A DNA stretch of 60,270 nucleotides from Candidatus Cloacimonadota bacterium (GCA_035402645.1 DAONDQ010000005.1:1-60270), one strand, 5' to 3'; shown: positions 4,518-51,155, counted from the stretch's first letter. The notes: generated by a model not told the origin, from the letters alone. Program-made: numbers and translations.

Positions 4518-6125
4518 TTGTTAAAACAAAAGTTTGTTTTGAGTTATTCCACCCAGGTGGTCAACCAAATATTACAAATGGTTGCAAGCATTATTGTTGC
4601 TCGTATCGCAGGTCCTTCTGTATTGGGTACGATTGCATTTGGATTAGCTTACGTTGGGATGTTTGGGTTTATTGCACAATTGGGCTTAGGCAGTGCTCAT
4701 ATGAAAATGATTTCGGAAGGGAAGGATCTAGGAAATTGCATTTCTACCTATAGGGTCATGAACTATTTTACGACAGCATTATTTATTGTTGTTACCTTGG
4801 GGTTTTTAACATTCCAGAAATTCATATTACATACAAATTTTGAAACATCTGATCATATCTTCGTCGTCATTGTCTTTACAATGGTTTATGGCATCCAAGC
4901 TTTATTAGGTGTTGCTAAAACGACTTTCTCTGCCAGAATTGAACAGGCAAAACTGGATATCCCTGAACTGGTAAGGAATGTTCTTTTGCAAATTGGTCGT
5001 ATAACCATTGTTCTAATAGGACTTCGCACAAAAACGTTGGCTGTCTTTAATCTTGCTACAGTAATTCTTGTTGCCGTCTGGATCACATATTTATTTAAAG
5101 AATATCCGCGCGGGAATTATGACAAAGAATTGGCGAAAGCATATATTAAAATAGGTATCCCTATCGTGATCTTAGGTTTTGCTTCAGGGATGATATCAAA
5201 CTTGGATAAAGTACTGTTGCAATTTTACACGAATTCTGAACAAGTGGGTTACTATGGAGCCAGTTTCCGTTTAGGTGGGTTTATATCGGTGATAGGTGCA
5301 AGTATTGGAATGCTTTTCTTCCCTTTATTTTCTAAAGCTGCTGTGGCAAAAGATTGGGAATTTATCAAATCCAAGATATCTACTTTTGAAAAATTTTCTG
5401 ATTTGATCGTATTCCCAATGGTCTTATTCGTCGCTATTTATTCAGATACAATCGTCTACTGGCTTTTGGGAAACAAGTATCTGCATTCCGTGATTCCATT
5501 GAGCCTCATCACGTTTGGCCTTTACATCAATATACAAACAATGCCCTATGGAAATGTGATAGCGGGTTTGGGCTATTTTGTACTGGATGCCGTTTGGAAT
5601 ATCATTACAGTGGCATACTTTGTTCTCGTTTTAATCTTATTCATTCATCCATCCTTGTTAAACATGGCAGCTCACGGAGCCGCGATTGCTCTCTTATCAA
5701 CTTACATTTTTTCAGGGATTTGGAACAGATATTATGCAAAACGTCTCATACCAAGTTTGAATCTTACCAAAAACCTCCCCCTGGTTTCCCTGATATTTTT
5801 AATAGCCAGTGTAATGTTCCTGGTTTATAGGTATGTCCTCGGCAATCCAGTTGATTATTTTAGATATGTCATTTTGGATCCAAAGGTTACATCCGAGATG
5901 GCATTTGGATCCCCAGGTCATTATTTTCGTTTTGTATTCCCCTTCCTCTATTTTGGTTTGATGTATGGGGTACTCTGGATTTCTAAAAATATAGGTAAAC
6001 CGGATATACAATTAATTCTTACCCTTGTAAGTCCCCGTAAGCTGAAGAATTACGTCGTATCAGAAATTGTTCCCACTTCATTTGCTGAAGAAATTCCAGA
6101 TGATCCAACTTCCAATGATCAATAA
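4518..6125 (+). CDS. Polysaccharide flippase (Wzx/MOP family)
   Basis: Many TM segments; IIVARIAGP..LG and NLDKVLL....EQVGYY motifs; TTG start. Confidence 0.8.
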   Translation: MLKQKFVLSYSTQVVNQILQMVASIIVARIAGPSVLGTIAFGLAYVGMFGFIAQLGLGSAHMKMISEGKDLGNCISTYRVMNYFTTALFIVVTLGFLTFQKFILHTNFETSDHIFVVIVFTMVYGIQALLGVAKTTFSARIEQAKLDIPELVRNVLLQIGRITIVLIGLRTKTLAVFNLATVILVAVWITYLFKEYPRGNYDKELAKAYIKIGIPIVILGFASGMISNLDKVLLQFYTNSEQVGYYGASFRLGGFISVIGASIGMLFFPLFSKAAVAKDWEFIKSKISTFEKFSDLIVFPMVLFVAIYSDTIVYWLLGNKYLHSVIPLSLITFGLYINIQTMPYGNVIAGLGYFVLDAVWNIITVAYFVLVLILFIHPSLLNMAAHGAAIALLSTYIFSGIWNRYYAKRLIPSLNLTKNLPLVSLIFLIASVMFLVYRYVLGNPVDYFRYVILDPKVTSEMAFGSPGHYFRFVFPFLYFGLMYGVLWISKNIGKPDIQLILTLVSPRKLKNYVVSEIVPTSFAEEIPDDPTSNDQ

Positions 6126-6137
6126 CGGAAATATACG

Positions 6138-7397
6138 ATGAATATGGACAGAGTTCGAGCTATGGTAAAAAATACATACTTCGTTAATTTAAATACGATT
6201 AAGGATCCGACGATACTCAATACCCAAGTCTTGAATTGGATTAAAGTATACGATGAATATGGCATCCATTTTGATTTAATCGTTATTGAAAGTGTCCTAA
6301 ATCTAATGACCGGGAGGCTTTTTTTTAATGAACAATTGGTGCGTAGGAATTTCAGTAATCGTATGATGAGAATTTATCTGGCAAAAGCAGGTTCTATCAT
6401 TTTCACCGTTCTAGTATTGATATTTCTACCTTGGTTGTTAAGAAAACCCTTACTTAAGAAACAGACGATTATTCTCCAAACCCGTTCAGAAATATTCGAG
6501 AAACCCCTACGTATATTGAAGAATCTAATTGGGCAGAGATTCAAGATCATATATGATTCCAGAGGCTCATCTCCTGAAGAATATAGATATGTTTTCCTGA
6601 AACAAAGTAAAAATCCGAAGATTAAGAAAAAGATAGAATCAATGCGTCATTTGGAGAAAGAAATGGTCGTCCTTGCTGACCGTGTTTTTTGTGTATCCAA
6701 TGCACTTAAACAATACCATATGCGTAATAACCCCCAAATCCCAGATTCCAAATTCTTCGTTTCGCCATGTAATGCTGATCCAACATTGTTTTTCTATGAT
6801 GCAGATATACGCGCAAGAGTAAGAGAAAAACTTGAAATCACTGATAAAAAGGTGATCATCTACTCCGGTGGACTGAAAATGCCATGGCATATCCCCGATG
6901 GAGTTTTTGAATTATTTGCGCGCTTAACCGAAACATGTCATGATATTTTTTTATTGATGCTTACCTCTGATATTAACATGGCAAGGGAATTTCAGCAAAA
7001 ACACAAGATTCCAGATGAGAAGATAAAGTTATTGAATCTCGATAATACGGAAGTAAGTGCTTATCTTAATGCTGCTGATTGGGCTATTTTACTCCGACAT
7101 GATATGCCCGTGAATAATGTTGCATCCCCAACTAAATTTGCTGAATATCTCATGGCAGGCTTACCTGTTATAATCTCACCGAATGTGGGGGATTTCTCTG
7201 ATTTTGTTGTTGAAAATGATGTTGGTTTTGTGATTCCCACACCTTATCGCGATGAAGATTTGCAGCAATTGAAAAGCTATCTACTCAAACCTATCAAATC
7301 CAAAGATGAAATTGCTCAACTCGGTGCTTTAAACTTTTCTAAAAAAGCGAATATAGAACAGAAGATTGATCAGTACCTTCAGCTTACTGTCCGCTAA
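6138..7397 (+). CDS. Glycosyltransferase family 4
   Basis: SPTKFAEYLMAGLPVI motif; GT-B organisation. Confidence 0.8.
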   Translation: MNMDRVRAMVKNTYFVNLNTIKDPTILNTQVLNWIKVYDEYGIHFDLIVIESVLNLMTGRLFFNEQLVRRNFSNRMMRIYLAKAGSIIFTVLVLIFLPWLLRKPLLKKQTIILQTRSEIFEKPLRILKNLIGQRFKIIYDSRGSSPEEYRYVFLKQSKNPKIKKKIESMRHLEKEMVVLADRVFCVSNALKQYHMRNNPQIPDSKFFVSPCNADPTLFFYDADIRARVREKLEITDKKVIIYSGGLKMPWHIPDGVFELFARLTETCHDIFLLMLTSDINMAREFQQKHKIPDEKIKLLNLDNTEVSAYLNAADWAILLRHDMPVNNVASPTKFAEYLMAGLPVIISPNVGDFSDFVVENDVGFVIPTPYRDEDLQQLKSYLLKPIKSKDEIAQLGALNFSKKANIEQKIDQYLQLTVR

Positions 7398-7717: not shown

Positions 7718-10700
7718 ATGGATACTTCTGAAAGATTTAACAATGGTTATACGGAAACTATCAGCTGTCTTACAATAGACTATCATTGTAGTCATCCGGA
7801 AGCCCGAAGCGCACTCATTGCAAGAGCCAGTAAAAATGAAAACGTTTTTTCGTGGAAGACTGGGAACCTGCTTCCGTCACCTGATGGAAAAATCAGGATC
7901 GTATGGTGGGCGGACTGGCTGTTTGTCAGGATGACCCACACCATTTTGAGTTGCTCTGCGAAGGAAGAAAGATTATTGATATTTCTACCGGAGACCCTTT
8001 ACACGGGATCGATCAGGTTACAAGAGCTGAAAACGGCACTGAACTGCATTTTGACCAACAACTGATCGATATGTATGGTGACTGCTTTGGCTGGTTTTAT
8101 CTGACTGTTCCTTCGAACATTATCCAGGGGAAAGAAAGTATCGTGCTGGAAGTTAAGGGAGAAGAAGCTGGCAGCCAAGATTGGATGATGGTATTTCAAT
8201 ACTCTTAGGATAATGTACCCATGCTACGTGTTGATCCTGTACTGGCGAAGAACGAAGTTCTTCCAGTTCAAATCTTGAACATAAGTATAGATAGTTTCTC
8301 ATCTTCAGGGCACCTAAGCATCGAAGTACTTGAAAAAGAACAAATCACAGAACAACTGCATTATGGCTTGAATACTTTTCAAGTTGAGCTTCCCCAAGTG
8401 GACCAGGAGCAGGATATTTCAGTTGAATTTTTACTAAATAAATCTTTGATAAAGGAACAAAAAGCTACTTTAAAACCTGTAATACCTCGTACGGTATTCA
8501 TACTGCCCTATTCACACAACGATATCGGTTATATTGATATCCAAAGTCATGTCATGGAGAAGCAGTGCCAGAATATTGATTTGGAATTGCAAATGGCTGA
8601 AGAGACTTCGGAATATCCCAAGGAAGCGATGGCAAAATGGAACCTGGAAGTAATATGGGCTCTTGAGCATTGTGGGAGAGAGCGAATGAGACAGACCACC
8701 AACAATTCATACAAGCAGTTCATTCAGGCAATATAGGTTTAAATGCTTTATATGAGAACTTATTAAGTGGCTTATGTAATTTGCCTGAGTTGAATCATCA
8801 TTTCGATTTAGCACATAGGATAAACTCCTTGGTTGGTAAGGATATCACGACAGCTACCGTACAGATATACCCGGTTTTGTTTGGAGTCTGCAAATAGCAT
8901 TATTCGATAATGGAGTGACGTATTTTTCCACAGAACCGAATGCAGGAGACAGAACCGGTCATCTCTATAAGGGATTAGGGGATAAACCCTTTTATTGGGT
9001 TTCACCTAATGGAGATAAACGAGTACTTACCTGGGTTAAAGGAGCAAGCTACTCGTTATTTTACAGGGAGAAAATAACGACTACGGCATTCGAAAGCTGA
9101 CGCAATACCTGCGAGAATTGGATGCCAAAGATTTTCCTTATAACATCGTTGCCTTACCCTTCACAATTGGGGGGAGATAATGGAGGACCAGATAAGGATT
9201 TGCCAAATTTCGTAAAAGCTTGGAATGCGCGTTATGAATCACCACAATTGGTAATTTCCACTCATGAACATTTGTTTACTGAATTTGAGGTAAAATATGG
9301 GAATCTTATTCCCAAGTTGGAAGGAGAAATGACTCCCTTTTGGGAAGACGGAGCATTCTCAACAGTTCAGGAAACCATGCTGGTTCGTAAGGCTGCTGAC
9401 AGATTGATCCAGGCTGAGGCATTGTATTCTCTATATCATCCCGAATCTTATTCTAATGAAGCCTTTTATAAGGCTTGGCAGCAGGTCATTCTTTGGGATG
9501 AGCATACTTGGGGAGCGTGGAATTGCGTTTCTGACCTTGATCTGTCTTTTGTCAAAGAACAGTGGCAAATTAAGCAATGCTTTGCTATCCAAAGTGATAA
9601 GCTATCAAAAGAACTTATAAATCATTTAATGCATGGCGATGAATTATCTTACGATTCAAAAGCAGTCGTTCTTTTCAATACTTCATCGCAGCCATGTGGG
9701 GAAGTAGTTCTATTACCAAATGGTTTCATTCCCCAAAGTAGGAACGTATTATGTCAAACGGTTGAGGATGGGTATGTAGCAGTAATGGTAGTGTTTGATA
9801 AGGGATGGCAACAAAAAGTCTTAATAGTCAATCACGAGATGAGACAGGAACAACCCAAAATAGAAGCAAGCAGTTCAATATTGGAAAATGAACAGATGAG
9901 GATTTGTTTTGATGAGAACAATGGGACTATAACTAGTCTTTGGCATAAGGTTCAGAAGAAGGAATATGTTGCGCAGGAGAAGCATTTACTGGAGTTAATC
10001 TATCTTTCCGGTAAGTATCAGCAAGAGTCATCAGTTATAACTGATGTCTGCATCCCGAAGACAGCGAAAGGACAGCTGTTTGACCAACTTGAATTTACAG
10101 GTAAATTGAAAGGATGCAATAATGTTCAGATATCCCTGAAGCTCAATCACTATTTAGATCGCCTTGATATTGACTTGATTATTGATAAACAAGCAATTCG
10201 AAAGAAGGAAAGTCTGCATTTTGCATTCCCAATCGGGTTGGATGAAGGTGTTCTGCGCTACGATTGTGCAGGGAAACCAATTGAACCTGAAATTGACCAA
10301 TTACCGGGATCGTGTAAAAATTTCTTTTCTCCAACAAGCTATGTAGATGTTTCCGATGAAGAATGCGGAATTACTGTTTCATTACCGGATGTGCCCTTAA
10401 TAGAGATCGGCGACATAACTGCAGAAATACCTTGGAAAGAGAGTATTGAACCTTCTACAACTTTCTATTCTTATGTTTTAAACAATTATTGGCATACGAA
10501 TTACAAAACAAACAAGTCAGGAGTGATGACTTTCAGGTATAGTATCCTTTTACATGGAAAGCTTAATGAAGGTGAGTTGCATTGCTTTGCCCAATCTCAG
10601 CGATAACCAGTGCTAGTTGGAGCGGGTCAACAGAATTTATACGACGTAAAATTCCCACTGGCACCTCCAGATAGTCCTATTATTGTTTTATCCCTGAAAC

Positions 10701-10891
10701 CCTTGGAAGGCAAGCAATCATGGGTGTTACAGGTATTGAACACTTTCGCAGAGAGTAAAGAATGGGAGTTTTACTAGAATAATAAGACAGCATTTGTTTA
10801 TCTTTGCCTACCTCAAGGAGTTAAACTGGGGCAGAATATAACTTCTGTCACCATACATCCATATTCTCAAGTATATCTCTGTGTAGAATAA
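7718..10891 (+). pseudogene. Degraded glycoside hydrolase family 38 (alpha-mannosidase-like) gene
   Basis: Successive fragments carry PYSHNDIGY, TDIPG, PFYWVSPNG, WDEHTWG and NNYWHTNY; about 5 frameshifts (~7905, ~8670, ~8860, ~9090, ~9170) and in-frame stops at 8206, 10604 and 10775. Confidence 0.8.
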
Positions 10892-11227
10892 TTCAGATGA
10901 TGCTTGCCACTAGAAGGATATTCTATTTAACATTGCCAGCCAAAATTACTTGACTGATTCAATGATTTGGTATTACAATGACTTAATGGATTCACTGTGG
11001 AGATGAATCGTAAATTTTGATAGGATGGCAAATTGGGGAACACTTAAAAATACTAAAAATTATCGTTTCTCATTATGATAGTTCCAAGAGTAACTCGGCA
11101 GAAATCCTTTCAGATTACTATGAGATAAGTCGAGTAAATTCCATACTGAAGGAACTTCTTCAGTCTGAGATTGTGACACAAAAAGGAATACTAAAGAAGC
11201 ATTTTATTTAAGCGTAAATAAATAATT

Positions 11228-39284: not shown

Positions 39285-39783
39285 GCAGAGAGATTTTCAT
39301 CCGGAAAAGAACGGAAAGGATGAATGTAAAAACAATCGAAAAAGCGATATTATAGATGATATTGAAGAAAAATAACGGGATAAGCTTTATGGAATAACCC
39401 GTCATCACCAACTGTACGATAAAGAAAATGAAGCCGTAAATGAGATTCACGATCCCGATGATAATGAGATGTGATAGGAATTTCTCCTTATCGAGGCTCT
39501 CATGATAACTGCTTACGATCCAGGCAAGGATGATATAACAAAGCGTATTGATCCCGAGAAGGTTCGGGGTAGTGATATCCTGCATCACACCCACTATGAA
39601 CAGCATGGTCATTGATGCCAGGAATGAAACATTCATGCTGAGGAAGATGACAAATGCCAACATGATATTGGGGACAATCCCAAATATGGAGAGATCCGGA
39701 GCAATAATGACCTGCAGATACAAAAGCAGGATTCCCATCACTCCTAATCGGAAGATATTCCAGAATTGCGATTCCCGGTTCAA
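39274..39783 (-). CDS. mreD: Rod shape-determining protein MreD
   Basis: Small polytopic membrane protein, PNI, G...D motifs; position before mrdA. Confidence 0.8.
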   Translation of the reverse strand: MNRESQFWNIFRLGVMGILLLYLQVIIAPDLSIFGIVPNIMLAFVIFLSMNVSFLASMTMLFIVGVMQDITTPNLLGINTLCYIILAWIVSSYHESLDKEKFLSHLIIIGIVNLIYGFIFFIVQLVMTGYSIKLIPLFFFNIIYNIAFSIVFTFILSVLFRMKISLHED

Positions 39784-40475
39784 ATGGTCTCCTCCGCCAC
39801 TCTTCTGATGATACAGAACGGAGTCAGTTCATCACCCTGTCCCTGTGGATTATCCTTCATCACTTTTTGCATAAAATCCTTATCAATTCCCGAACTTCCA
39901 CCGATCATCCAGCATCCGCCGATGTCATTGATATCCATGACAGCAGTTTCATAGCCCAGGGCATCTTTGATTTTCTGGGATTCCTTCTCCGGATGAAGAG
40001 GACCCTTGATCACACAATCATCGTAAGGTGGAACAGGTGAAGTATGCGCAGCATCGATCAAGGCTGCCTGCATACCTGCAATACGGTAGAAATCTCCCTT
40101 TCTGCCGACCAGTTTCCCCAAGGCTCCTACAAAAGCAGCAAGCAGGATTCTTCCTGCACCGCATTCATCGATCGCACACTGCATGCTTGTGGGTGCGCGT
40201 AAGCCGATGCCATATGGAACTTTGGCTACGAATCTCCAAAGAATCCGGGCAAGTAAGCCTATCTTCAGTTGTGAGACAGGAACTGCTCTGCCCTGCGTGA
40301 TTGCCATTGGGCTTTCACTGATGGATATGATATCTCCTTTTTGCAGGATGTTTCCTGCTGATTCCCTGATGATATCAATAAATGAATCACCCGGCATGAG
40401 GATCCTCGTTTTTACCGGAATCCGTTCATACTGGATACCATTGACTTCAATATTCGGCTGGCGGTTCTTGCTCAT
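39780..40475 (-). CDS. CofE-like (F420-0:gamma-glutamyl ligase family) protein
   Basis: PVKT.IL, GDII.ISES, G..A.ID, VMDINDIG, DNP.GQG.E.TP motifs; overlaps mreC and mreD. Confidence 0.7.
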   Translation of the reverse strand: MSKNRQPNIEVNGIQYERIPVKTRILMPGDSFIDIIRESAGNILQKGDIISISESPMAITQGRAVPVSQLKIGLLARILWRFVAKVPYGIGLRAPTSMQCAIDECGAGRILLAAFVGALGKLVGRKGDFYRIAGMQAALIDAAHTSPVPPYDDCVIKGPLHPEKESQKIKDALGYETAVMDINDIGGCWMIGGSSGIDKDFMQKVMKDNPQGQGDELTPFCIIRRVAEETI

Positions 40476-42410: not shown

Positions 42411-42884
42411 CTACTCTTCCACCAATCCGTTCAACTCCGAAGGATCATACCAACTGATCAACCCCTGGATACGCTGAATCTCCGTTTGGAGTATGGTTTT
42501 ATGATTTGATTCCTCTTCTGCAAATTGCAGGAAAAGTTCTTTCATGTCTGCATGCACACAACCCTGTGCCAATCTCAGGTACGCTTCATGCGCCAATTCT
42601 TCACGCCCGACGGCAAACTCAAGGATGCTTTTCGGATCATTGACAATATCCGCAGGGACATCGTGCTTCACTTTCTCTTCATCGATCGCCAGCGTCTCAT
42701 TCGGAAATTCCCTCTGAAAACCATCACGAAGTTTCTCTTCATGCATTTCTTCCAGCGGTACAAGATTGAGAAATGTCCTGCTAACATTCTCCTGTTTGAA
42801 GCTCTTCGCCAGAGATCTATATAAATTCTGTGACTTGATCTCGTAATGAATTGCAAGAATATATGCTTCTTTCCTGGATTCCAT
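42411..42884 (-). CDS. Ferritin-like / rubrerythrin family protein
   Basis: Paired E...ExxH motifs (EEMH, ESNH). Confidence 0.8.
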   Translation of the reverse strand: MESRKEAYILAIHYEIKSQNLYRSLAKSFKQENVSRTFLNLVPLEEMHEEKLRDGFQREFPNETLAIDEEKVKHDVPADIVNDPKSILEFAVGREELAHEAYLRLAQGCVHADMKELFLQFAEEESNHKTILQTEIQRIQGLISWYDPSELNGLVEE

Positions 42885-42991: not shown

Positions 42992-43038
42992 CGCAGCGCC
43001 GCATAGCATGCGGTGGACACTTCGCATAGCATGCGAAT
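42992..43038 (+). repeat. Cognate REP doublet, copy 1
   Basis: CGCAGCG-CCGCAT-AGC-ATGCGG-TGGACAC-TTCGCAT-AGC-ATGCGAA-T, immediately past the transposase stop. Confidence 0.9.
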
Positions 43039-43042
43039 TTTA

Positions 43043-43669
43043 TCAAAACTCATCGCTTATCCACGAGTATTTCCACTCTTCAGGTTCATTAACAAGCTTC
43101 GCTTTCACCGGATTCATTAAAATGTAATTCGCTATATTCATCGCCTCTTTTCCGCTGCGTGCACAGTAATCATAATACTCTCTCTGCCAGGTCGAACCTG
43201 TCTTCTTCAAAAGCAAGTTGATATCATGTGTGGTTATACTCTTGATCTTCTTTACAATAAAGCTGAGTTGATGATACTCACCTTCTTCTCTTTCCTTCAA
43301 TCGCAACAAGATATGAACATGATTCGGCATGATTGTAAAACAGAAAAGATCATACAGGTCTTTATCAAATTTCTGCAGTGTATTCATAATGATCTCTGCT
43401 ACTCCGGGATTTGTCAGGTAATCAGTGTCCTTTCGGTATTCAGTAAGCAATGTATCATAAAAATCAAATACCCTCTTTCTAATCACATTTTGATAATACG
43501 ACCCTTGTTTTGTTTTGCTGCTGATCTCAAGCTTATATTCATTTAGTTTTGCAATGAAATCTGCTGGAAGTGAATTGTTCAATCTGAACGTGATAAAAAG
43601 CACACCATTCTCCGGCTGATAATGGGGCATTCGCCTGTAATAAAATTGTGAGTCTTTGTTATTATTCAT
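43043..43669 (-). mobile_element. REP-associated tyrosine transposase (RAYT, IS200/Y1 HUH family)
   Basis: RMPHY..FITFRL, IMPNHVHIL (HUH), WQREYYD, YILMNPVKA (catalytic Tyr), W.YS motifs; flanked by inverted REP doublets; no tnpB. Confidence 0.9.
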
Positions 43670-43692
43670 ATAGCCCTCCTCTAATATTGATC

Positions 43693-43740
43693 TATTCGCA
43701 TTCTATGCGAAGTGTCCACCGCATGCTATGCGGCGCTGCG
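43693..43740 (-). repeat. Cognate REP doublet, copy 2 (inverted)
   Basis: Reverse complement of copy 1 with one loop substitution (AGA). Confidence 0.9.
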
Positions 43741-43745
43741 TAGTG

Positions 43746-44888
43746 TTATTCTTTCATTTTGTATTCGAGATATTGTACTGCCTTATCTGCTTTTTTCACA
43801 GCATATCGAATCTCTTTTGCATCTTTCGAAATCTGGACTCCAAGAATTTTTGTATTTCGTAAACTTATCGCGTTACTATGATCCGTAAAATCTTGAATCA
43901 ATTTGCCTGATAGAACATCAAATACAACCACAAACGGACCATTCCCAATTATTGCAATCAACGTGCTGTCAACTTGCGTCATATCAATGCAGTCATAATC
44001 AAAACCAGCAACAATATTGCCGCTTGAATTATCCAAAATACACTTGTTTGTTTTCCACTCTGTTCGCAAGAGAGAAAAATCAGGTGCGTTTTTATAAAAT
44101 CCAATACCGTTCCCTGGATCAAAATCTGAGAAGTCTTTATACATTCTCTCTTTCGTTGATAGCAAGAAGAGTCTTCTGATCCTTTCTGTTTTGTCATATG
44201 AAATCACGATATACTTCTGAGTTGGGGTAATTTCAATACAAGATGGTTGTATCATTCTTGTATCTGTTTTATAAAGAAATCGTATGACTCCATCGAAAGA
44301 TACTACTGCAATTTCAAAGTTCAATTTTTCTCCATATTGTCCGAAAAGGAAATTATCTCCTAAATTACCGATTATATTCGATAAGTTGCGATAATTCCCG
44401 ATCTCTTGCGGAAAAGTGATCTCTTCACCAGTATCCTTTTTCAATACATATCTTTTATGTTCTATATCATACAGCAAAAGACCATCTTTGGTTTCATTTA
44501 TACATGAAACTACATATTCAACGTTTGGCAATGGACTCTCGGCTTGATCTCCCCAAGTATCATCATTTTCAAATGCGTAAAGTGTAGACGTTTTCCATAG
44601 AACACGACCAGCAAAGTCAGTACATTTCAAGTAATATGGATTGTAACACTTATATAGGAAACCATTAAAAGCATGTGGAGTAGGAAATTCAAACATATTC
44701 GAAGTGGTCTCATCATATTCTTTTTTACTTATCTCTCCCAGCAGAGCAAACTTATGGGATGCACTTTTAGCATTACTCCTATCCAATCCCTTAAAATCAG
44801 CACTTTCAAAATGATAAATCGGATATGCCCATAACGATAATCCAAACAACACTGATGATAGAATCAATAAACAACTTTTATATCTCAT
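43746..44888 (-). CDS. Secreted hypothetical protein (beta-rich, possibly propeller)
   Basis: 380 aa, signal peptide, AT-rich coding; no recognised family. Confidence 0.6.
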   Translation of the reverse strand: MRYKSCLLILSSVLFGLSLWAYPIYHFESADFKGLDRSNAKSASHKFALLGEISKKEYDETTSNMFEFPTPHAFNGFLYKCYNPYYLKCTDFAGRVLWKTSTLYAFENDDTWGDQAESPLPNVEYVVSCINETKDGLLLYDIEHKRYVLKKDTGEEITFPQEIGNYRNLSNIIGNLGDNFLFGQYGEKLNFEIAVVSFDGVIRFLYKTDTRMIQPSCIEITPTQKYIVISYDKTERIRRLFLLSTKERMYKDFSDFDPGNGIGFYKNAPDFSLLRTEWKTNKCILDNSSGNIVAGFDYDCIDMTQVDSTLIAIIGNGPFVVVFDVLSGKLIQDFTDHSNAISLRNTKILGVQISKDAKEIRYAVKKADKAVQYLEYKMKE

Positions 44889-44895
44889 GATCCCC

Positions 44896-44994
44896 TCAAT
44901 GATTTCTCAAGAAATCTTCAGCATTACCAATTGGATCGAAAGCCTGTTTGAGAAAGTTTGCCAACATTTTATTGCTATTTACTGCTTTAAACAT
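44896..44994 (-). CDS. 32-aa small ORF (MFKAVNSNKMLANFLKQAFDPIGNAEDFLRNH)
   Basis: AGGAGG 4 nt upstream of ATG; stop overlaps the RBS of the next gene. Confidence 0.4.
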   Translation of the reverse strand: MFKAVNSNKMLANFLKQAFDPIGNAEDFLRNH

Positions 44995-45129
44995 GCATCC
45001 TCCTATATCCACCATAGATAACTCAAAATCCGCATAGAGATTAAATGCTGATGTGAATATTTATTATATGATTAATACTTGTAAAGTAAATTCCAATTTC
45101 CCTTTGCCCTTCAACCGGGTGCAATCCAA

Positions 45130-45176
45130 GCAGCGCCGCATAGCATGCGGTGGACACTTCGCATAGAATGCGAATA
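45130..45176 (+). repeat. Cognate REP doublet, copy 3
   Basis: GCAGCGCCGCATAGCATGCGGTGGACACTTCGCATAGAATGCGAATA; identical to the reverse complement of copy 2 over 47 nt. Confidence 0.9.
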
Positions 45177-45178
45177 TA

Positions 45179-45323
45179 CTTACTTCTTTGACGATACAAA
45201 GAAGTAAGATATCCAATTCGTGGGTTGGGAAACCCACTCCAAAAACAGGTTGGGAAACCTGTGGTACAGAAAAGTTTGCAACGCACGGGGTGCGTTGAGC
45301 CACCTCACGGGGTGAGGCGTTCC
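45179..45323. repeat. Cluster of hairpins from other REP-like families
   Basis: 12-bp stem at 45179-45208; two GGTT-GGGA-AACC hairpins at 45220-45267; two CAC-GGG-GTG hairpins at 45279-45319. Confidence 0.8.
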
Positions 45324-45339
45324 GAGAATTTCCTTACGC

Positions 45340-45451
45340 ATACCAATCCCTTTCCAATGGGATTCCAATCCCATACCAATCTCTTTCCAATCTCTCAGGA
45401 TTGGTATGAGATAGGTAAGGCATTGCTATTGCTTTGGATTTAGATTGGATT
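45340..45451. repeat. Head-to-head array of degenerate 11-bp repeats
   Basis: Five nnnCCAATnnn units then about five inverted nnnATTGGnnn units at 11-bp period. Confidence 0.7.
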
Positions 45452-45537: not shown

Positions 45538-46797
45538 TTAATTGCGGATGGTTTCGATCGGATTCAAATGCTCGATCTTTCGGGAAGGATAGAGGACGCT
45601 GATGAACGATATCAGGAGGCTGATCAAAGGCACAATAATGAAATCAAGGGTCTTGATCTGTACCGGCAGGGCAACCAGGGGGAAAGTGCCCATGGGAATC
45701 TTAAAAAACTGAAGATGCATTTGAAGGGATAGCAGAACATATGCTGCAATTCCGCCAATCAGGATACCCAGGAGTGTATGGATCAGTCCCTGGAGCAGGA
45801 AGATATTACGAATCGACAAGTTGGTGACGCCAATTGCCTTGAGAATCCCGATTTCCCTTCGTTTCAGGACTGTCAGTTTAAGCAGGTTTCCTGTCATATT
45901 AAATGCTGTGATTAGAAGCATCAAACTCAGAACGGAGATCATGACGATCTTTTCCATCTTCATTGCGCTGAAAAGATTGGGATCGAAGTGGCTCCAATCC
46001 TCCACCATGAATGCAGGATATTCCTGTTTCAGTTTCTGTGCTGTCTGCTGGAGGTCTTTGTCGCTATTTGCCTTGATTTGAACATAATCGATGGCTTCAG
46101 GGTCTTTGCTGAAAAACTGACCGTTCGGTAGGGAAATATAACTGAAAAGGCGGTCATATTCGGGCATGCCTGAGACAAAGGTGGCAATCACCAGCATATT
46201 CCTGCTTTGAGGGATCATACCGAGTGGAGTGGGAATGGTTTTTATCGGTGAAACAACTTGAATCGTATCTCCCACACTCACCTGCAACTGAATGGCTAAA
46301 TCCATGCCGAGAATGATCCCGTCCTGCTCGAGTAATTGTTTATCCGCCATCCCGTTCACCACACCACGCAATACAGCTTCTTTTTTCTGCTGTGTTTTAT
46401 CGGGGATGGGGTTGAAAATTTGCGTTACCTTACGATGCCGGTCCAGGTCAATCGCATAAATAACGCTTCCCTGCATGTTCTTGCCATTCAGGAGCATTAA
46501 TTCGTTTTCAACGACTGGAGAGGCACCTTTAACCAAAGGATCATGATCCAGTTTCTGTAGCAGGGAAGTATAGTCATGCAGAGGTTTATGATTCGGATTG
46601 AATAGTTTGATCTCAGCCTTGGTTCCAATGATCCGGTTGGTGATATCCTGGTCGAATCCGTTCATGACGGAAGAAACGACGAGCAGTGAAAAGACGCTGA
46701 GGACGATGCCGCCCAGGCTTAGCATATTCGAGCCATGAATGAGGAATTTACTCCTGCCTTTCAAGTAATGGAATGCAAGCCTGGTACTGAATCTCAT
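45538..46797 (-). CDS. LolC/E-family ABC transporter permease
   Basis: VVSSVMNGF, MKMEK, REIGILKAIG motifs. Confidence 0.85.
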   Translation of the reverse strand: MRFSTRLAFHYLKGRSKFLIHGSNMLSLGGIVLSVFSLLVVSSVMNGFDQDITNRIIGTKAEIKLFNPNHKPLHDYTSLLQKLDHDPLVKGASPVVENELMLLNGKNMQGSVIYAIDLDRHRKVTQIFNPIPDKTQQKKEAVLRGVVNGMADKQLLEQDGIILGMDLAIQLQVSVGDTIQVVSPIKTIPTPLGMIPQSRNMLVIATFVSGMPEYDRLFSYISLPNGQFFSKDPEAIDYVQIKANSDKDLQQTAQKLKQEYPAFMVEDWSHFDPNLFSAMKMEKIVMISVLSLMLLITAFNMTGNLLKLTVLKRREIGILKAIGVTNLSIRNIFLLQGLIHTLLGILIGGIAAYVLLSLQMHLQFFKIPMGTFPLVALPVQIKTLDFIIVPLISLLISFISVLYPSRKIEHLNPIETIRN

Positions 46798-48407: not shown

Positions 48408-49724
48408 CTACAGGATAAAATAGCGCAGCAGGATATATGCTGTGGACATGATAAGCGATACCATCGTGAAGATGATGCCGTACTTGGTAAAATCCCAGAA
48501 ACTGATCGTATGACCGGCTTTCTTTGCCAACCCGACTGAAACAACGTTTGCAGATGCACCGATAAGGGTCATATTTCCACCCAGACATGCACCGAGTGAG
48601 AGTGACCACCATAGGGGCTGGATCACATGCGCAACCTGTTGAGGATTCAAATGCTGCTGAATACCGACCTGGGCCCCGATATCCTTGATAATGGGGATCA
48701 TGGTGGCTACAAACGGAATATTGTCGATGACACCGGATGCAAAACCTGAAATCCAGACAAGGGCAACGGAAGTTTTCATCAGGCTTCCACCTGTCACCTT
48801 GGTCAGCCAGACGGCAATCAATTCGATGATACCGGTTTTATCTAGACTGCCAACAACGATGAAAAGACCCATGAAGAATACGATTGTACCCCATTCGATT
48901 TCTTCCATGATGAGTTTCTCGACGTGTTTATGACCACTGATCAGGACCAGAATGGCTGCACAGAATAATGCCATGGTAGCAGCTTCAAGATGATGGATAC
49001 TCTGGGTGAACAGACCTGCGAGAAACAGCATGAATACGATCCCGGATTTGTACAGGAGCGGGTAATCTGCTATGGCATCGCGTTCATTGAATTGCATGAT
49101 GTTTGCTTTCAGGGCATCGGAAACGTGGAGTTTCTTTTTGAATATGAAATACGCCAAACCCAATGATACAACCATAATCGCAATCACCACTGGTGCTAGG
49201 TTTGTAATAAAAGTCAGGAATTCGAGTTTCGCAGCGCTGCCGATCATGATATTGGGTGGATCGCCGATCAGGGTCGCTGTACCACCGATGTTGGAAGCGA
49301 TTGCCTGGGTGATGATAAAGGGAATGGGAGAGATGTTCAATTCAGTTGCCACGAGCATGGTAACGGGAATTACGATCATGATGGTTGTGACATTGTCGAG
49401 CAGCGATGAAACGAATGCTGTGATGATAAAAAGCAGGAGCATGATGGTGATTGGATTACCCTTCGCTATTTTTGCAGTCTTGATGGCAATATATTGAAAG
49501 ACACCTGTATGCTTCATGATCCCAACGATGATCATCATACCTGAGAGTAGGAACAACACATTCCAATCAATGAAATTAAATGCTTCCTTTTGCTCCATGA
49601 CCCCGGATATAATGAGGATGGTGCTCCCGAGAATTGTTGCAACCACCTTATGGATCTTTTCGCTGGAAATCAGAATAAACGTGATGATAAAGACGACGCC
49701 GGATATCATCATGGCATGACTCAT
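48408..49724 (-). CDS. ArsB/NhaD (IT superfamily) permease, copy 2
   Basis: DNVTT, SNIGGTATLIGDPPN, DNIP, GGN.TLIGASAN motifs. Confidence 0.85.
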   Translation of the reverse strand: MSHAMMISGVVFIITFILISSEKIHKVVATILGSTILIISGVMEQKEAFNFIDWNVLFLLSGMMIIVGIMKHTGVFQYIAIKTAKIAKGNPITIMLLLFIITAFVSSLLDNVTTIMIVIPVTMLVATELNISPIPFIITQAIASNIGGTATLIGDPPNIMIGSAAKLEFLTFITNLAPVVIAIMVVSLGLAYFIFKKKLHVSDALKANIMQFNERDAIADYPLLYKSGIVFMLFLAGLFTQSIHHLEAATMALFCAAILVLISGHKHVEKLIMEEIEWGTIVFFMGLFIVVGSLDKTGIIELIAVWLTKVTGGSLMKTSVALVWISGFASGVIDNIPFVATMIPIIKDIGAQVGIQQHLNPQQVAHVIQPLWWSLSLGACLGGNMTLIGASANVVSVGLAKKAGHTISFWDFTKYGIIFTMVSLIMSTAYILLRYFIL

Positions 49725-49835
49725 CCATTACCTCCGCTGCGGATTTTGCATGCCAAAAATGGTCATTTGTCCGGAATCATGCAAGGAATATCTGTTGCCT
49801 ACCCGAAGATAAGCAACAGATAATGCAAAATGGGA

Positions 49836-51155
49836 TTATGTTAAATAGCGGAAATAAACGTATATTGTGCTTATTATAAGAGAAACGACGGTATAGATGA
49901 TACCATATTTCGTAAATTCCCAGAAAGTGACCTTATGACCTGCCTTATTGGCAATTCCAACAGAGACAACATTTGCAGATGCACCGACAAGAGTTCCATT
50001 ACCACCCAAACAGGCACCAAGTGATAATGACCACCAGAGGGGTTCGATCATTACCTTGATCTGGTCAGGCGTCATCCCGGGATGCATGAGGGCAATCTGA
50101 GCCCCCATGTTCTTAATCAGGGGAATCATCGTAGCTACATAAGGGATATTATCGACAATAGCGGAAAGAATCCCTGACATCCAAACAATGGCGATGGAAG
50201 CGATAGTCATATTGCCATGTGTTGAGTTCATGAAGAGAACGGAGAGTTTATCGATAACACCAGTTTCCACTAAACCACCAACAATAATGAATAACCCGAT
50301 AAAGAAGAAAATGGTGCCCCATTCGATATCTTCGGTCAACAACTTTTCAACATTATGGTATTTACTGATGATCATTAATAAAGTGGCGGCAAGCATAGCA
50401 AGTGTGGCAGCTTCCAGATGCAGGATACCCTGAAATAGAAAGCTGGTAAGAAGAAGTCCCATTACGATAAAAGACTTATACATAAGACCACGATCCGTGA
50501 TCGCATTTTCTTCATTGAAAGCCATGATCTTGCGTTTGGATTCTTCAGTTACCTTCATTTTCGATGCAAACATCAGATAGCTTAAAGGTAGAGAAACCAG
50601 CGTGATAATTATGACTACAGGTGTCAGATTATAGATAAAAGACATGAAGTCATATCCGGTAGCACTGCCGATCATGACGTTGGGTGGATCACCGATTAAG
50701 GTGGCGGTTCCACCGATGTTGGATGCAACAGCCTGGCTGATCATAAATGGCACCGGTGAGATTTTCAATTCTGTAGCAATCAGGATGGTGACAGGGGCAA
50801 CGATCATGATGGTCGTTACGTTCGGCAGAAAAGCGGAGATCACGGCTGTTACGACGAACATGAACAGCATGATCTTGACGGGTTCACCTTTTGCTATTTT
50901 AGCAGTCTTGATGGCAACATACTGGAACATACCGGTTTGTTTAGCCAAACCAATGATCAGCATCATGCCAATCAACAGAAAAAGCACATCCCAATCAACA
51001 TAATGACCGAAGGCTGTTTTTTCGGACATAATGCCGACAGCGATCATAAGGAGTGCTCCGCATAGGGAAGCAATGATCTTATTTATGATTTCGGATGAAA
51101 TAAAAAAATAAGCAATAAGAAAAATACCAATTGATACGAACATGGTGGGAGTCAT
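49836..51155 (-). CDS. ArsB/NhaD (IT superfamily) permease, copy 1
   Basis: Same motifs, but PNVTT in place of DNVTT. Confidence 0.85.
   Translation of the reverse strand: MTPTMFVSIGIFLIAYFFISSEIINKIIASLCGALLMIAVGIMSEKTAFGHYVDWDVLFLLIGMMLIIGLAKQTGMFQYVAIKTAKIAKGEPVKIMLFMFVVTAVISAFLPNVTTIMIVAPVTILIATELKISPVPFMISQAVASNIGGTATLIGDPPNVMIGSATGYDFMSFIYNLTPVVIIITLVSLPLSYLMFASKMKVTEESKRKIMAFNEENAITDRGLMYKSFIVMGLLLTSFLFQGILHLEAATLAMLAATLLMIISKYHNVEKLLTEDIEWGTIFFFIGLFIIVGGLVETGVIDKLSVLFMNSTHGNMTIASIAIVWMSGILSAIVDNIPYVATMIPLIKNMGAQIALMHPGMTPDQIKVMIEPLWWSLSLGACLGGNGTLVGASANVVSVGIANKAGHKVTFWEFTKYGIIYTVVSLIISTIYVYFRYLT

Follow-up and report, generated by a model that had tools for sequence, protein, structure and literature searches.

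Capture of genes by REP units has been proposed, and we found no demonstration of it in the literature searched. The locus described here does not by itself settle whether such capture occurs. In the window, a stretch of 60,270 nucleotides deposited as Candidatus Cloacimonadota bacterium (GCA_035402645.1 DAONDQ010000005.1:1-60270), a RAYT gene is accompanied by three copies of one REP-like repeat, two of which also enclose an accessory gene (the cargo). A sequence-only reading had proposed that these two copies delimit a captured or exchangeable gene cassette. Our analysis identifies a real REPtron of a noncanonical type, in a lineage for which we found no such description in the literature searched, and a third repeat copy that is genuine and has counterparts at roughly three of every ten related loci. 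At this locus the claim of a cassette is unproven, and a sister system, built on another repeat (R8), is the better place to pursue it.

The RAYT Gene

The RAYT (TnpA-REP) gene occupies positions 43043–43669 on the minus strand and encodes 208 amino acids with intact NHVH, WQ, and YILMNP motifs. The protein scores 85.7 bits against the curated model NF047646 (cut-off 80), and its best sequence match in the PDB is the TnpA-REP of E. coli (PDB code 4ER8, E 2e-5). In an alignment of 13 sequences, His-117, His-119, Tyr-182, Asn-186, and Pro-187 of the segments N116-H117-V-H119 and Y182-I-L-M-N186-P187 are invariant. The tyrosine signature of class 2 TnpA-Y1 enzymes is Y---NP, according to the accessible text of PMC6006769, and the protein encoded at 43043–43669 carries both this signature and the HUH motif. 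The IS200 model NF033573 yields 22.3 bits against a cut-off of 55, and the Y---Q signature and multiple copies of IS200/IS605 elements are absent. Also absent is the C-terminal helix-turn-helix extension of TIRtrons and subclass 2.1: the RAYT ends 21 residues past the NP motif, and a search of the protein for helix-turn-helix families gave no match.

The gene has no near-identical duplicate in its genome, where eight other tblastn matches reach at best 45% identity. Two relatives, P0002 and P0003, encoded on contigs of 13.0 and 8.6 kb, are 71% identical to this RAYT. A metagenome scan with the RAYT alignment returned 80 loci of 26–47% identity, with no close relative among them, and a scan of viral contigs for the RAYT returned no relative. 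In the assembly that contains this locus (G000, 3.19 Mb), 10 sequences match the RAYT model (6 over the cut-off), and in a complete congener genome (G001) there are 15 (8 over the cut-off). Nine of the 10 matches in G000 have a repeat common to both flanks; the tenth is located at a contig end.

R5, a Low-copy Repeat with a Noncanonical Foot

We use the name R5 for the 47-nt REP-like family around the RAYT at 43043–43669. Copy 1 (positions 42993–43038, plus strand) consists of a GCAG foot, an 8-bp hairpin, 5 nt, and a 7-bp hairpin, with the foot directed away from the RAYT. Copy 2 (43693–43739, minus strand) follows the cargo stop codon foot-first and ends 24 nt before the RAYT start; the RAYT does lie between two inverted copies, as had been read from the sequence. 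The distance from the cargo stop, previously given as 5 nt, is 6 nt to the GCAG foot, and 5 nt only if a C common to copies 1 and 2 is counted. Copy 3 (45130–45176, plus strand) is identical to copy 2, is directed away from the cargo, and heads a stack of other repeats. Copies 2 and 3 are complementary at 47 of 47 positions and have 1390 nt between them, confirming a third copy 1.4 kb off that encloses the cargo. Copies 1 and 3 are indeed direct repeats around 2.2 kb (2137 nt apart, 45 of 46 positions identical), copy 1 differing from copies 2 and 3 by a single loop base in 46. With copies 1 and 2 on the flanks of the gene and other copies dispersed between genes, the locus has the arrangement that defines a REPtron.

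The two tandem hairpins of 8 and 7 bp have 3-nt loops and a common GCAT-AG(C/A)-ATGC sequence; the 8-bp hairpin contains a G-T pair close to its base, and five bases separate it from the 7-bp hairpin. The units had been described as REP doublets. This holds for the two tandem hairpins and their common sequence, but the two hairpins belong to one unit that has only one foot, which is different from an inverted pair of REPs (REPIN). REPINs are two inverted REPs with a short spacer, dispersed as a unit, whereas the R5 copies away from the RAYT are all single. The canonical REP foot GT[AG]G, taken as a defining feature, does not describe R5, in which the foot is GCAG in 8 of 12 copies, GTAG in 2, GAAG in 1, and GCAT in 1. 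Because the foot is mostly GCAG and not GT[AG]G, we class R5 as REP-like and not as a canonical REP.

A count across the 3.19-Mb assembly (99.8% complete) with the 25-nt core of R5 finds 11 copies at ≤4 mismatches, or 12 with one looser copy; 8–9 of them are found on other contigs, besides this locus. This is too few for copy 3 to be expected by chance: if copies were placed uniformly, a free R5 copy would fall within 1.5 kb of the RAYT with a probability of 0.007–0.009. Copy 3 is not a chance occurrence. Five distant two-hairpin copies match copy 2 at 34–43 of 46 positions (3–12 differ); as copy 3 is identical to copy 2 and the distant copies have diverged, copy 3 appears young and local. The public contigs break at each repeat, and no contig crosses an entire copy and extends far to either side of it, which could point to an assembly artefact. 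However, with a chance placement below 1%, the divergence of the five distant copies, and a contig of run X1 (possibly the source sample) that spans the cargo into copy 3 (44311–45159) with no differences, we regard chance or artefact as a very improbable origin of copy 3.

Several other R5 copies likewise adjoin repeats of other families. On contig C157, R5 is located 19 nt behind the stop codon of a core gene that has a 90% orthologue in G001, and proximity to a stop is therefore not peculiar to the cargo. In a collection of species genomes, the exact R5 core has two matches, both within long open frames; lacking the second hairpin and a RAYT, they were taken as chance matches and not as true R5. 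A search of Rfam gave nothing near threshold.

The repeats in the clade of this RAYT have in common a G-N-A-R foot and a CGCC/GGTG stem base, and the upper stem varies with pairing kept. In hairpin 1 of four related RAYT-repeat pairs, 98% of cells are paired, five of eight pairs are changed on both sides, and none of 500 shuffles reaches the score, in a set of eight hand-picked copies from four RAYT loci plus one dispersed site whose relatedness is not controlled. Covariation inside R5 alone is weak, with hairpin 1 invariant in seven distinct copies and one pair of hairpin 2 changed on both sides. Because hairpin 1 covaries across the RAYT clade, R5 is likely the cognate REP-like unit of the RAYT. 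The enzyme is predicted to cleave and rejoin single-stranded R5.

The Repeat Stack behind Copy 3

Four other repeat families come immediately after copy 3, past the end (45176) of the interval first described. The first is a hairpin module, H (45180–45212), which has 13–17 copies in the genome and here is without the left part present in most others. It is followed by an R32-like two-hairpin repeat (45214–45267, minus strand; 28–32 copies), akin to the repeat that flanks the RAYT gene of contig C32, and by R8 (45279–45324, minus strand; 19–22 copies), which flanks the RAYT gene of contig C8 and has the same foot-plus-two-hairpin plan as R5. The stack ends with a long imperfect inverted repeat (45326–45450), the most abundant family tested, found at 57 places. 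The RAYTs of C32 and C8 belong to distant branches of the RAYT tree.

The order H, R32-like, R8 recurs elsewhere in the genome without R5. An R32-like repeat precedes R8 in 11 of 19 R8 copies, with a spacing of 14–15 nt and related spacers, and the reverse order never occurs; H precedes the R32-like repeat in 8 of 13 H copies. Because a stack of fixed order recurs and several other R5 copies adjoin repeats, copy 3 looks like one more arrival at a spot where repeats gather.

Genome-wide, 36 of 255 low-GC3 genes are located beside repeats, compared with 142 of 1355 others (p 0.10). The same repeat family is present on both sides of 6 non-transposase genes out of 1610.

The Cargo Gene

The cargo gene (43746–44888, minus strand) encodes 380 amino acids with a putative signal peptide, recognized by eye, and belongs to a small, patchy family. 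Searches of Pfam, NCBIfam, and PADLOC returned no match. The AlphaFold model (pLDDT 68) matches propellers at a TM score of about 0.3, and a comparison with the Atlas yields propeller matches with TM scores up to 0.61. We thus predict, with moderate confidence in the fold, a secreted β-propeller protein.

The cargo had been called an AT-rich orphan. Its GC content (0.34) and GC3 (0.28) are low, but an orphan it is not: the same genome contains four clear paralogues, a match is present in 6 of the 231 remaining genomes of this phylum (full-length in three, at about 30%), the homologue P0122 (2.7-kb contig) is 48% identical, and the family comprises 16 cluster representatives at E < 1e-30, the cargo and its own paralogues counted in. 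Low GC was considered as proof of a recent capture and rejected, as the paralogues are equally AT-rich (GC3 0.30–0.33). Neither a RAYT nor R5 is found within about 1.5 kb at any of 10 cargo-homologue loci, three of which are weak matches. Two paralogue loci have other repeat families on their flanks, and one partial homologue is located 6.8 kb from a RAYT whose repeat has no detached copy.

A putative small ORF (44896–44994, minus strand) would encode 32 amino acids from an ATG behind GGAGG, or alternatively 39 amino acids from position 45015. The genome contains no paralogue of this ORF, and nothing similar precedes eight cargo homologues. A tRNA search found none in the window, and a promoter scan did not exceed chance (11 vs 10.4).

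The Insertion Site in a Congener

The block is inserted between two core genes. On the left, a rubrerythrin-like gene (42411–42884, minus strand; PF02915, E 1e-15) has a 62% orthologue in G001, and on the right, a lolC/E-like ABC permease gene (45538–46797, minus strand) has a 69% orthologue. Seven genes from a rodA-like to the rubrerythrin-like gene, followed by lolCE and lysS, are syntenic in G001. The gap between the rubrerythrin-like gene and lolCE measures 2653 bp here versus 74 bp in G001, where the RAYT, the cargo, and all repeats are absent together and no REP remains. G001 as a whole contains no match to the cargo and no match to the R5 core at three mismatches; at about 75% DNA identity, it is too distant for breakpoint mapping. 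The whole block between lolCE and the rubrerythrin-like gene is hence accessory, and the piece absent from G001 exceeds the interval first proposed.

In 232 genomes, with few candidates scored per genome, DNA of R5 plus the stack matches only G000 and, in its R8 part, G001. In seven sequencing runs, all present as assembled contigs, in which rare forms are dropped, we found no excision or inversion joint at R5, an absence that carries no weight in such data. Among the pieces listed for an RNA run, none covers the RAYT or the cargo. The comparison thus revealed neither an R5 abundant enough to place copy 3 by chance nor a cargo gene syntenic in a REP-free relative, because R5 is low-copy and the RAYT and cargo are both absent from the congener site.

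Detached Copies and RAYT Addresses at Related Loci

Related RAYTs occur in 116 of 232 genomes. We surveyed 40 of 219 RAYT matches (all 11 of G001 and 29 chosen on score and length of contig) together with 7 loci of G000. A flanking repeat common to both sides is present at 45 of these 47 loci, and 14 of the 45, this locus counted in, possess a detached cognate copy. Detached copies are found at 17 sites, 14 at 0.9–4 kb and 3 at 4–7 kb (p 0.012 vs available length).

Among the genes enclosed by detached copies are those for a class I tRNA synthetase, an aminotransferase whose syntenic orthologue is 87% identical, a phosphoglucomutase, two IS transposases, McrBC, GmrSD, a type ISP enzyme, a Bro-N protein, secretion-tail proteins, unannotated proteins, and, on C30, a pair that is aspartase- and HydF-like by eye only. 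Two sites enclose no ORF of 90 amino acids, and at roughly half of the 17 the enclosed genes are of the defence or secreted type or lack annotation. GC3 is lower inside than outside the detached copy at 6 of 11 evaluable sites (4 skipped; p 0.58), and no general step is apparent; a sharp step at the outer REP is seen at this locus (−0.25) and on C8 (−0.20).

Local REP spread accounts for this pattern without capture. Together with the cargo homologues, which lie apart from RAYTs and R5, the survey leaves the proposed cassette between copies 2 and 3 without support: copy 3 is part of a recurring stack, and detached copies are common and enclose core genes, too. An argument from orientation (the cargo, unlike the RAYT, lies between the feet of its repeats) was given little weight because REP orientation varies around related RAYTs.

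A further reading is that the 2.2-kb block delimited by copies 1 and 3 in direct orientation moves itself and its passenger gene, as an active single-strand transposon similar to IS200/IS605. Direct repeats on one strand do enclose both enzyme and passenger, and most RAYT sites differ between G000 and G001, from which it follows that RAYT genes change address over long times. However, the block exists in one copy only, the nearest paralogue is 45% identical, the IS200 model gives 22 bits where 55 are needed, and viral contigs hold no relative, all of which makes such a transposon very unlikely. Of the 11 RAYT loci of G001, one is clearly at the same site in G000 with an orthologous RAYT, one is near the same core gene, and one is at the same site with a RAYT of a neighboring branch. 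At least four of the sites are RAYT-free in G000, and two of those contain a related REP; these two fit loss by deletion, as described for E. coli; the accessible text of PMC3333891 reports REPtron loss by deletion or by hicAB replacement. The address pattern fits slow gain plus loss by deletion, and not active self-transposition.

Gene-plus-REP Units in the Sister R8 System

The cassette idea is kept alive because the sister R8 system shows cassette-like gene-plus-REP units. In G001, mcrB-mcrC is located beside the R8 RAYT, between two inverted-pair units of 211 nt that are 99% identical; unlike R5, R8 does form inverted pairs in this genome. In G001, the final codons of two whole type ISP restriction-modification genes and of one fragment lie within R8. 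Such an overlap with R8 also exists at the ends of a type ISP homologue on C8, an Eco57I-like gene, McrC, and the RAYT of R8 itself. The type ISP gene of C8 is 76% identical to one of the G001 genes, with homology through the REP, and the two are found at different sites; the G000 site that matches that of the G001 type ISP gene has neither gene nor REP. At L235, the gene overlaps the REP in a frame other than the one ending in ERLTP.

R8 sites are clustered, with 6 observed at distances of 1–10 kb versus 1.85 expected (p about 0.009), and the 5 clustered sites away from the RAYT are all in direct orientation. Foot-side genes lack a G000 orthologue at 26 of 37 R8 copies versus 125 of 262 in the background (p 0.013, with copies that are not independent). 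Sixteen of the 37 copies are located ≤60 nt from a stop, and in 5 of these cases the gene has an orthologue; the accessory excess among these stop-proximal REPs (11 of 16) is not significant (p 0.13).

These observations would suit a REP-mediated accretion of genes, in which accessory genes gain a 3′ REP and the RAYT, or else host recombination, then inserts the gene with its REP where a REP already resides, such that gene modules pile up beside the RAYT between repeats. At the locus studied here, the cargo, copy 2, the RAYT, and copy 1 would have entered at a copy 3 that was already resident, and copies 1 and 3 would have become direct repeats around them. The clean joint absence in G001 is in line with such an event, as are, for R8, the enclosed mcrB-mcrC, the overlapped gene ends, the REP-tailed type ISP gene at different sites in two genomes, and the clustering, direct orientation, and excess of foot-side genes without orthologue. 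In addition, the accessible text of Ton-Hoang 2012 (PMC3333891) proposes that BIME units may sequester neighboring genes.

However, this evidence stems from a sister family, whereas the cargo is a single occurrence with no homologue next to R5, and no joint was seen in the contigs of the seven runs. Each point on R8 also has a plainer reading. A preference for 3′ ends is also seen at core genes, and the stop-proximal excess falls short of significance; strand-biased insertion and insertion-tolerant islands likewise yield direct orientation and an island bias; and a REP tail may ride along with a gene moved by other means. We therefore consider accretion a possible but rather doubtful explanation of this locus.

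Proposed Mechanism

On balance, we favor a local spread of REPs around a variant REPtron, with the cargo as a likely bystander, and hold this reading to be fairly probable. By analogy to the biochemistry of the TnpA-REP enzymes of E. coli and Stenotrophomonas, the RAYT would bind the foot plus hairpin on single-stranded DNA, nick it via Tyr-182, and rejoin the strands. The guide rule given in PMC8266576 tentatively suggests CT as the cleavage site. New copies would then arise preferentially close to the RAYT gene and to hairpins that are already present. Copy 3 itself is likely the product of a recent short-range hop into an accumulation of other repeats. The junction between lolCE and the promoter of the rubrerythrin-like gene may tolerate insertions and so have collected the RAYT unit, an accessory gene, and five repeat families. 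Several observations speak against local spread. The joint absence of RAYT, cargo, and repeats in G001 is a single step if they arrived jointly, GC3 steps occur here and on C8, about half of the detached sites enclose genes of defence or secreted type or without annotation, and R8 forms gene-plus-REP units.

Relation to Known Systems

IS200/IS605 elements with passenger genes resemble the locus in that hairpins bound an HUH enzyme and one additional gene, and integron cassettes are gene-plus-3′-repeat modules, as in the sister R8 system. In contrast to IS200/IS605 elements, the locus has a different tyrosine motif, a single-copy block, and no TnpB. Unlike an integron, it has no integrase on its contig (none of eight tyrosine recombinase matches is located there) and no second cargo site.

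A close counterpart is the REPtron of E. coli (PDB code 4ER8), as described in the accessible text of Ton-Hoang 2012 (PMC3333891) and Corneloup 2021 (PMC8266576). Both have an HUH/Y1 enzyme with YxxxNP and no close duplicate, inverted cognate hairpin repeats on the flanks that are also dispersed between genes, and REP scars at sites that carry the RAYT in a relative. Here, however, the foot is mostly GCAG (G-N-A-R in the clade) in place of GT[AG]G, two tandem hairpins make up each unit, R5 has about a dozen copies and not hundreds, short inverted R5 pairs are absent, and the RAYT model has 10 matches in G000 and 15 in G001. Within the TnpA-Y1 classification, as far as the accessible text of Quentin 2018 (PMC6006769) describes it, NHVH, WQ, and YIxxNP fit subclasses 2.7/2.4, an assignment made by motif only; the 208 residues compare with a median of 213 for subclass 2.7, and the paralogues have low intragenomic identity in both cases. 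The long canonical GT[AG]G REPs given there for these subclasses differ from R5.

Hybrid REP dimers with composite TIRs (Di Nocera 2013; PMC3733652, in its accessible text) and BIMEs resemble the stack in that joined REP families are amplified together, and those genomes, too, contain several repeat-specific REPtrons. Unlike in hybrid dimers, the repeats of the distant-branch RAYTs of C32 and C8 share one orientation in a head-to-tail junction, and further modules lie on both sides. The picocyanobacterial procA genes beside TnpA-REP (bioRxiv 10.1101/2020.03.09.984088, accessible text) also are accessory genes by such an enzyme, with a role that is proposed and unproven, as here; there, the enzyme is of subclass 2.1 and an entire gene family is involved, whereas members of the cargo family show no other link to RAYTs. 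Further literature on REPs and RAYTs was covered as accessible text (PMC3686654, PMC3116915, PMC5581495, and bioRxiv 10.1101/2021.07.10.451892). In this search, which included few subscription journals, we found no REPtron with cargo, no RAYT with a passenger gene, no heterologous mosaic REPs since 2019, and no RAYT from Cloacimonetes.

A broader and tentative idea, which we consider improbable, is that RAYTs and their REPs act as a single-strand, integron-like gene collector that inserts REP-tailed genes at resident REPs. The collected genes would be those for defence and secreted proteins, and this locus would represent one capture, with the cargo and the RAYT between the direct copies 1 and 3. 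If this were true, the “domesticated” RAYTs would gain the host-beneficial job that is expected of them.

The 47-nt substrate with its noncanonical foot offers a simple in vitro test of recognition rules. In this lineage (likely Cloacimonadota), RAYTs are common and each has its own low-copy repeat; therefore, repeat traffic can be traced copy by copy. Particular features of the lineage are chimeric units assembled from the REPs of different RAYTs and REP-ended restriction genes that change their address.

Chimeric REP unit in the repeat stack

The repeat stack headed by the third R5 copy (window 45130-45176) includes a chimeric unit (window 45214-45324), in which two REPs cognate to distant RAYTs, those of contigs C32 and C8, are joined head to tail. 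In G000, the 3.19-Mb assembly that holds the locus, this combination occurs with a fixed spacing of 14-15 nt in 11 of the 19 copies of R8, the flanking repeat of the C8 RAYT. Chimeric units lie at C21:28825, C45:17383, and C47:233-340, as well as on contigs C48 (two), C52, C73, C88, C178, and C197. The hairpin module H often precedes the chimeric unit, and a long inverted repeat often follows it. The latter (window 45326-45450) is imperfect, contains CCAATCC units, and is found at 57 places in G000; no cognate enzyme was identified for it.

Genes associated with REP arrays and stacks

The complete congener genome G001 carries an array with the order unit-RAYT-unit-mcrBC-unit (locus L167:3393-7870); the window's orthologous site lies 7 kb away. 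The units bracketing mcrBC are 99% identical across 211 nt, and their spacer features a promoter-like TTGACA box. Restriction-modification genes (type ISP, Eco57I-like) have their 3' ends inside the R8 repeat at L228:2272-5447 (G000 C8), L235:4185-7464, L236:863-4182, L248, and L229:505-4281. The C8 gene, which is split into two ORFs, is 76% identical to that of L235, but their sites differ.

Three accessory-looking genes (GC3 of 0.22, 0.38, and 0.24) at G000 C58:5744-10873 are separated by mixed repeat stacks, each of which includes the repeat of the C10 RAYT, distant from that RAYT itself. The REP array beside the G001 RAYT at L168 is interrupted by Mutator-family and IS110-family transposase genes (5378-6820 and 9686-10963).

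Neighboring genes and RAYT sites in G000 and G001

Within the mreB-mreC-mreD-pbp2 run, the window encodes an F420-ligase-like gene (39780-40475; PF01996, E 2e-7) that is kept in the corresponding G001 run (88%). After lysS, the window possesses a tandem pair of membrane-transporter-like paralogues (48408-51155; 438 and 439 aa), whereas G001 has an R8 RAYT island.

At L221:1531-1577 (G000 C157) and L223 (G000 C30:13190-13230), G000 contains a REP without a RAYT, exactly at the positions where G001 carries a RAYT of the same clade; these lone REPs are possibly deletion scars. At G000 C75:13721 and L171, both genomes have a RAYT at the same gene junction. The C75 RAYT nevertheless clusters with another G001 RAYT, that of L170 (support 99/99), which suggests that the RAYT at this junction was replaced.
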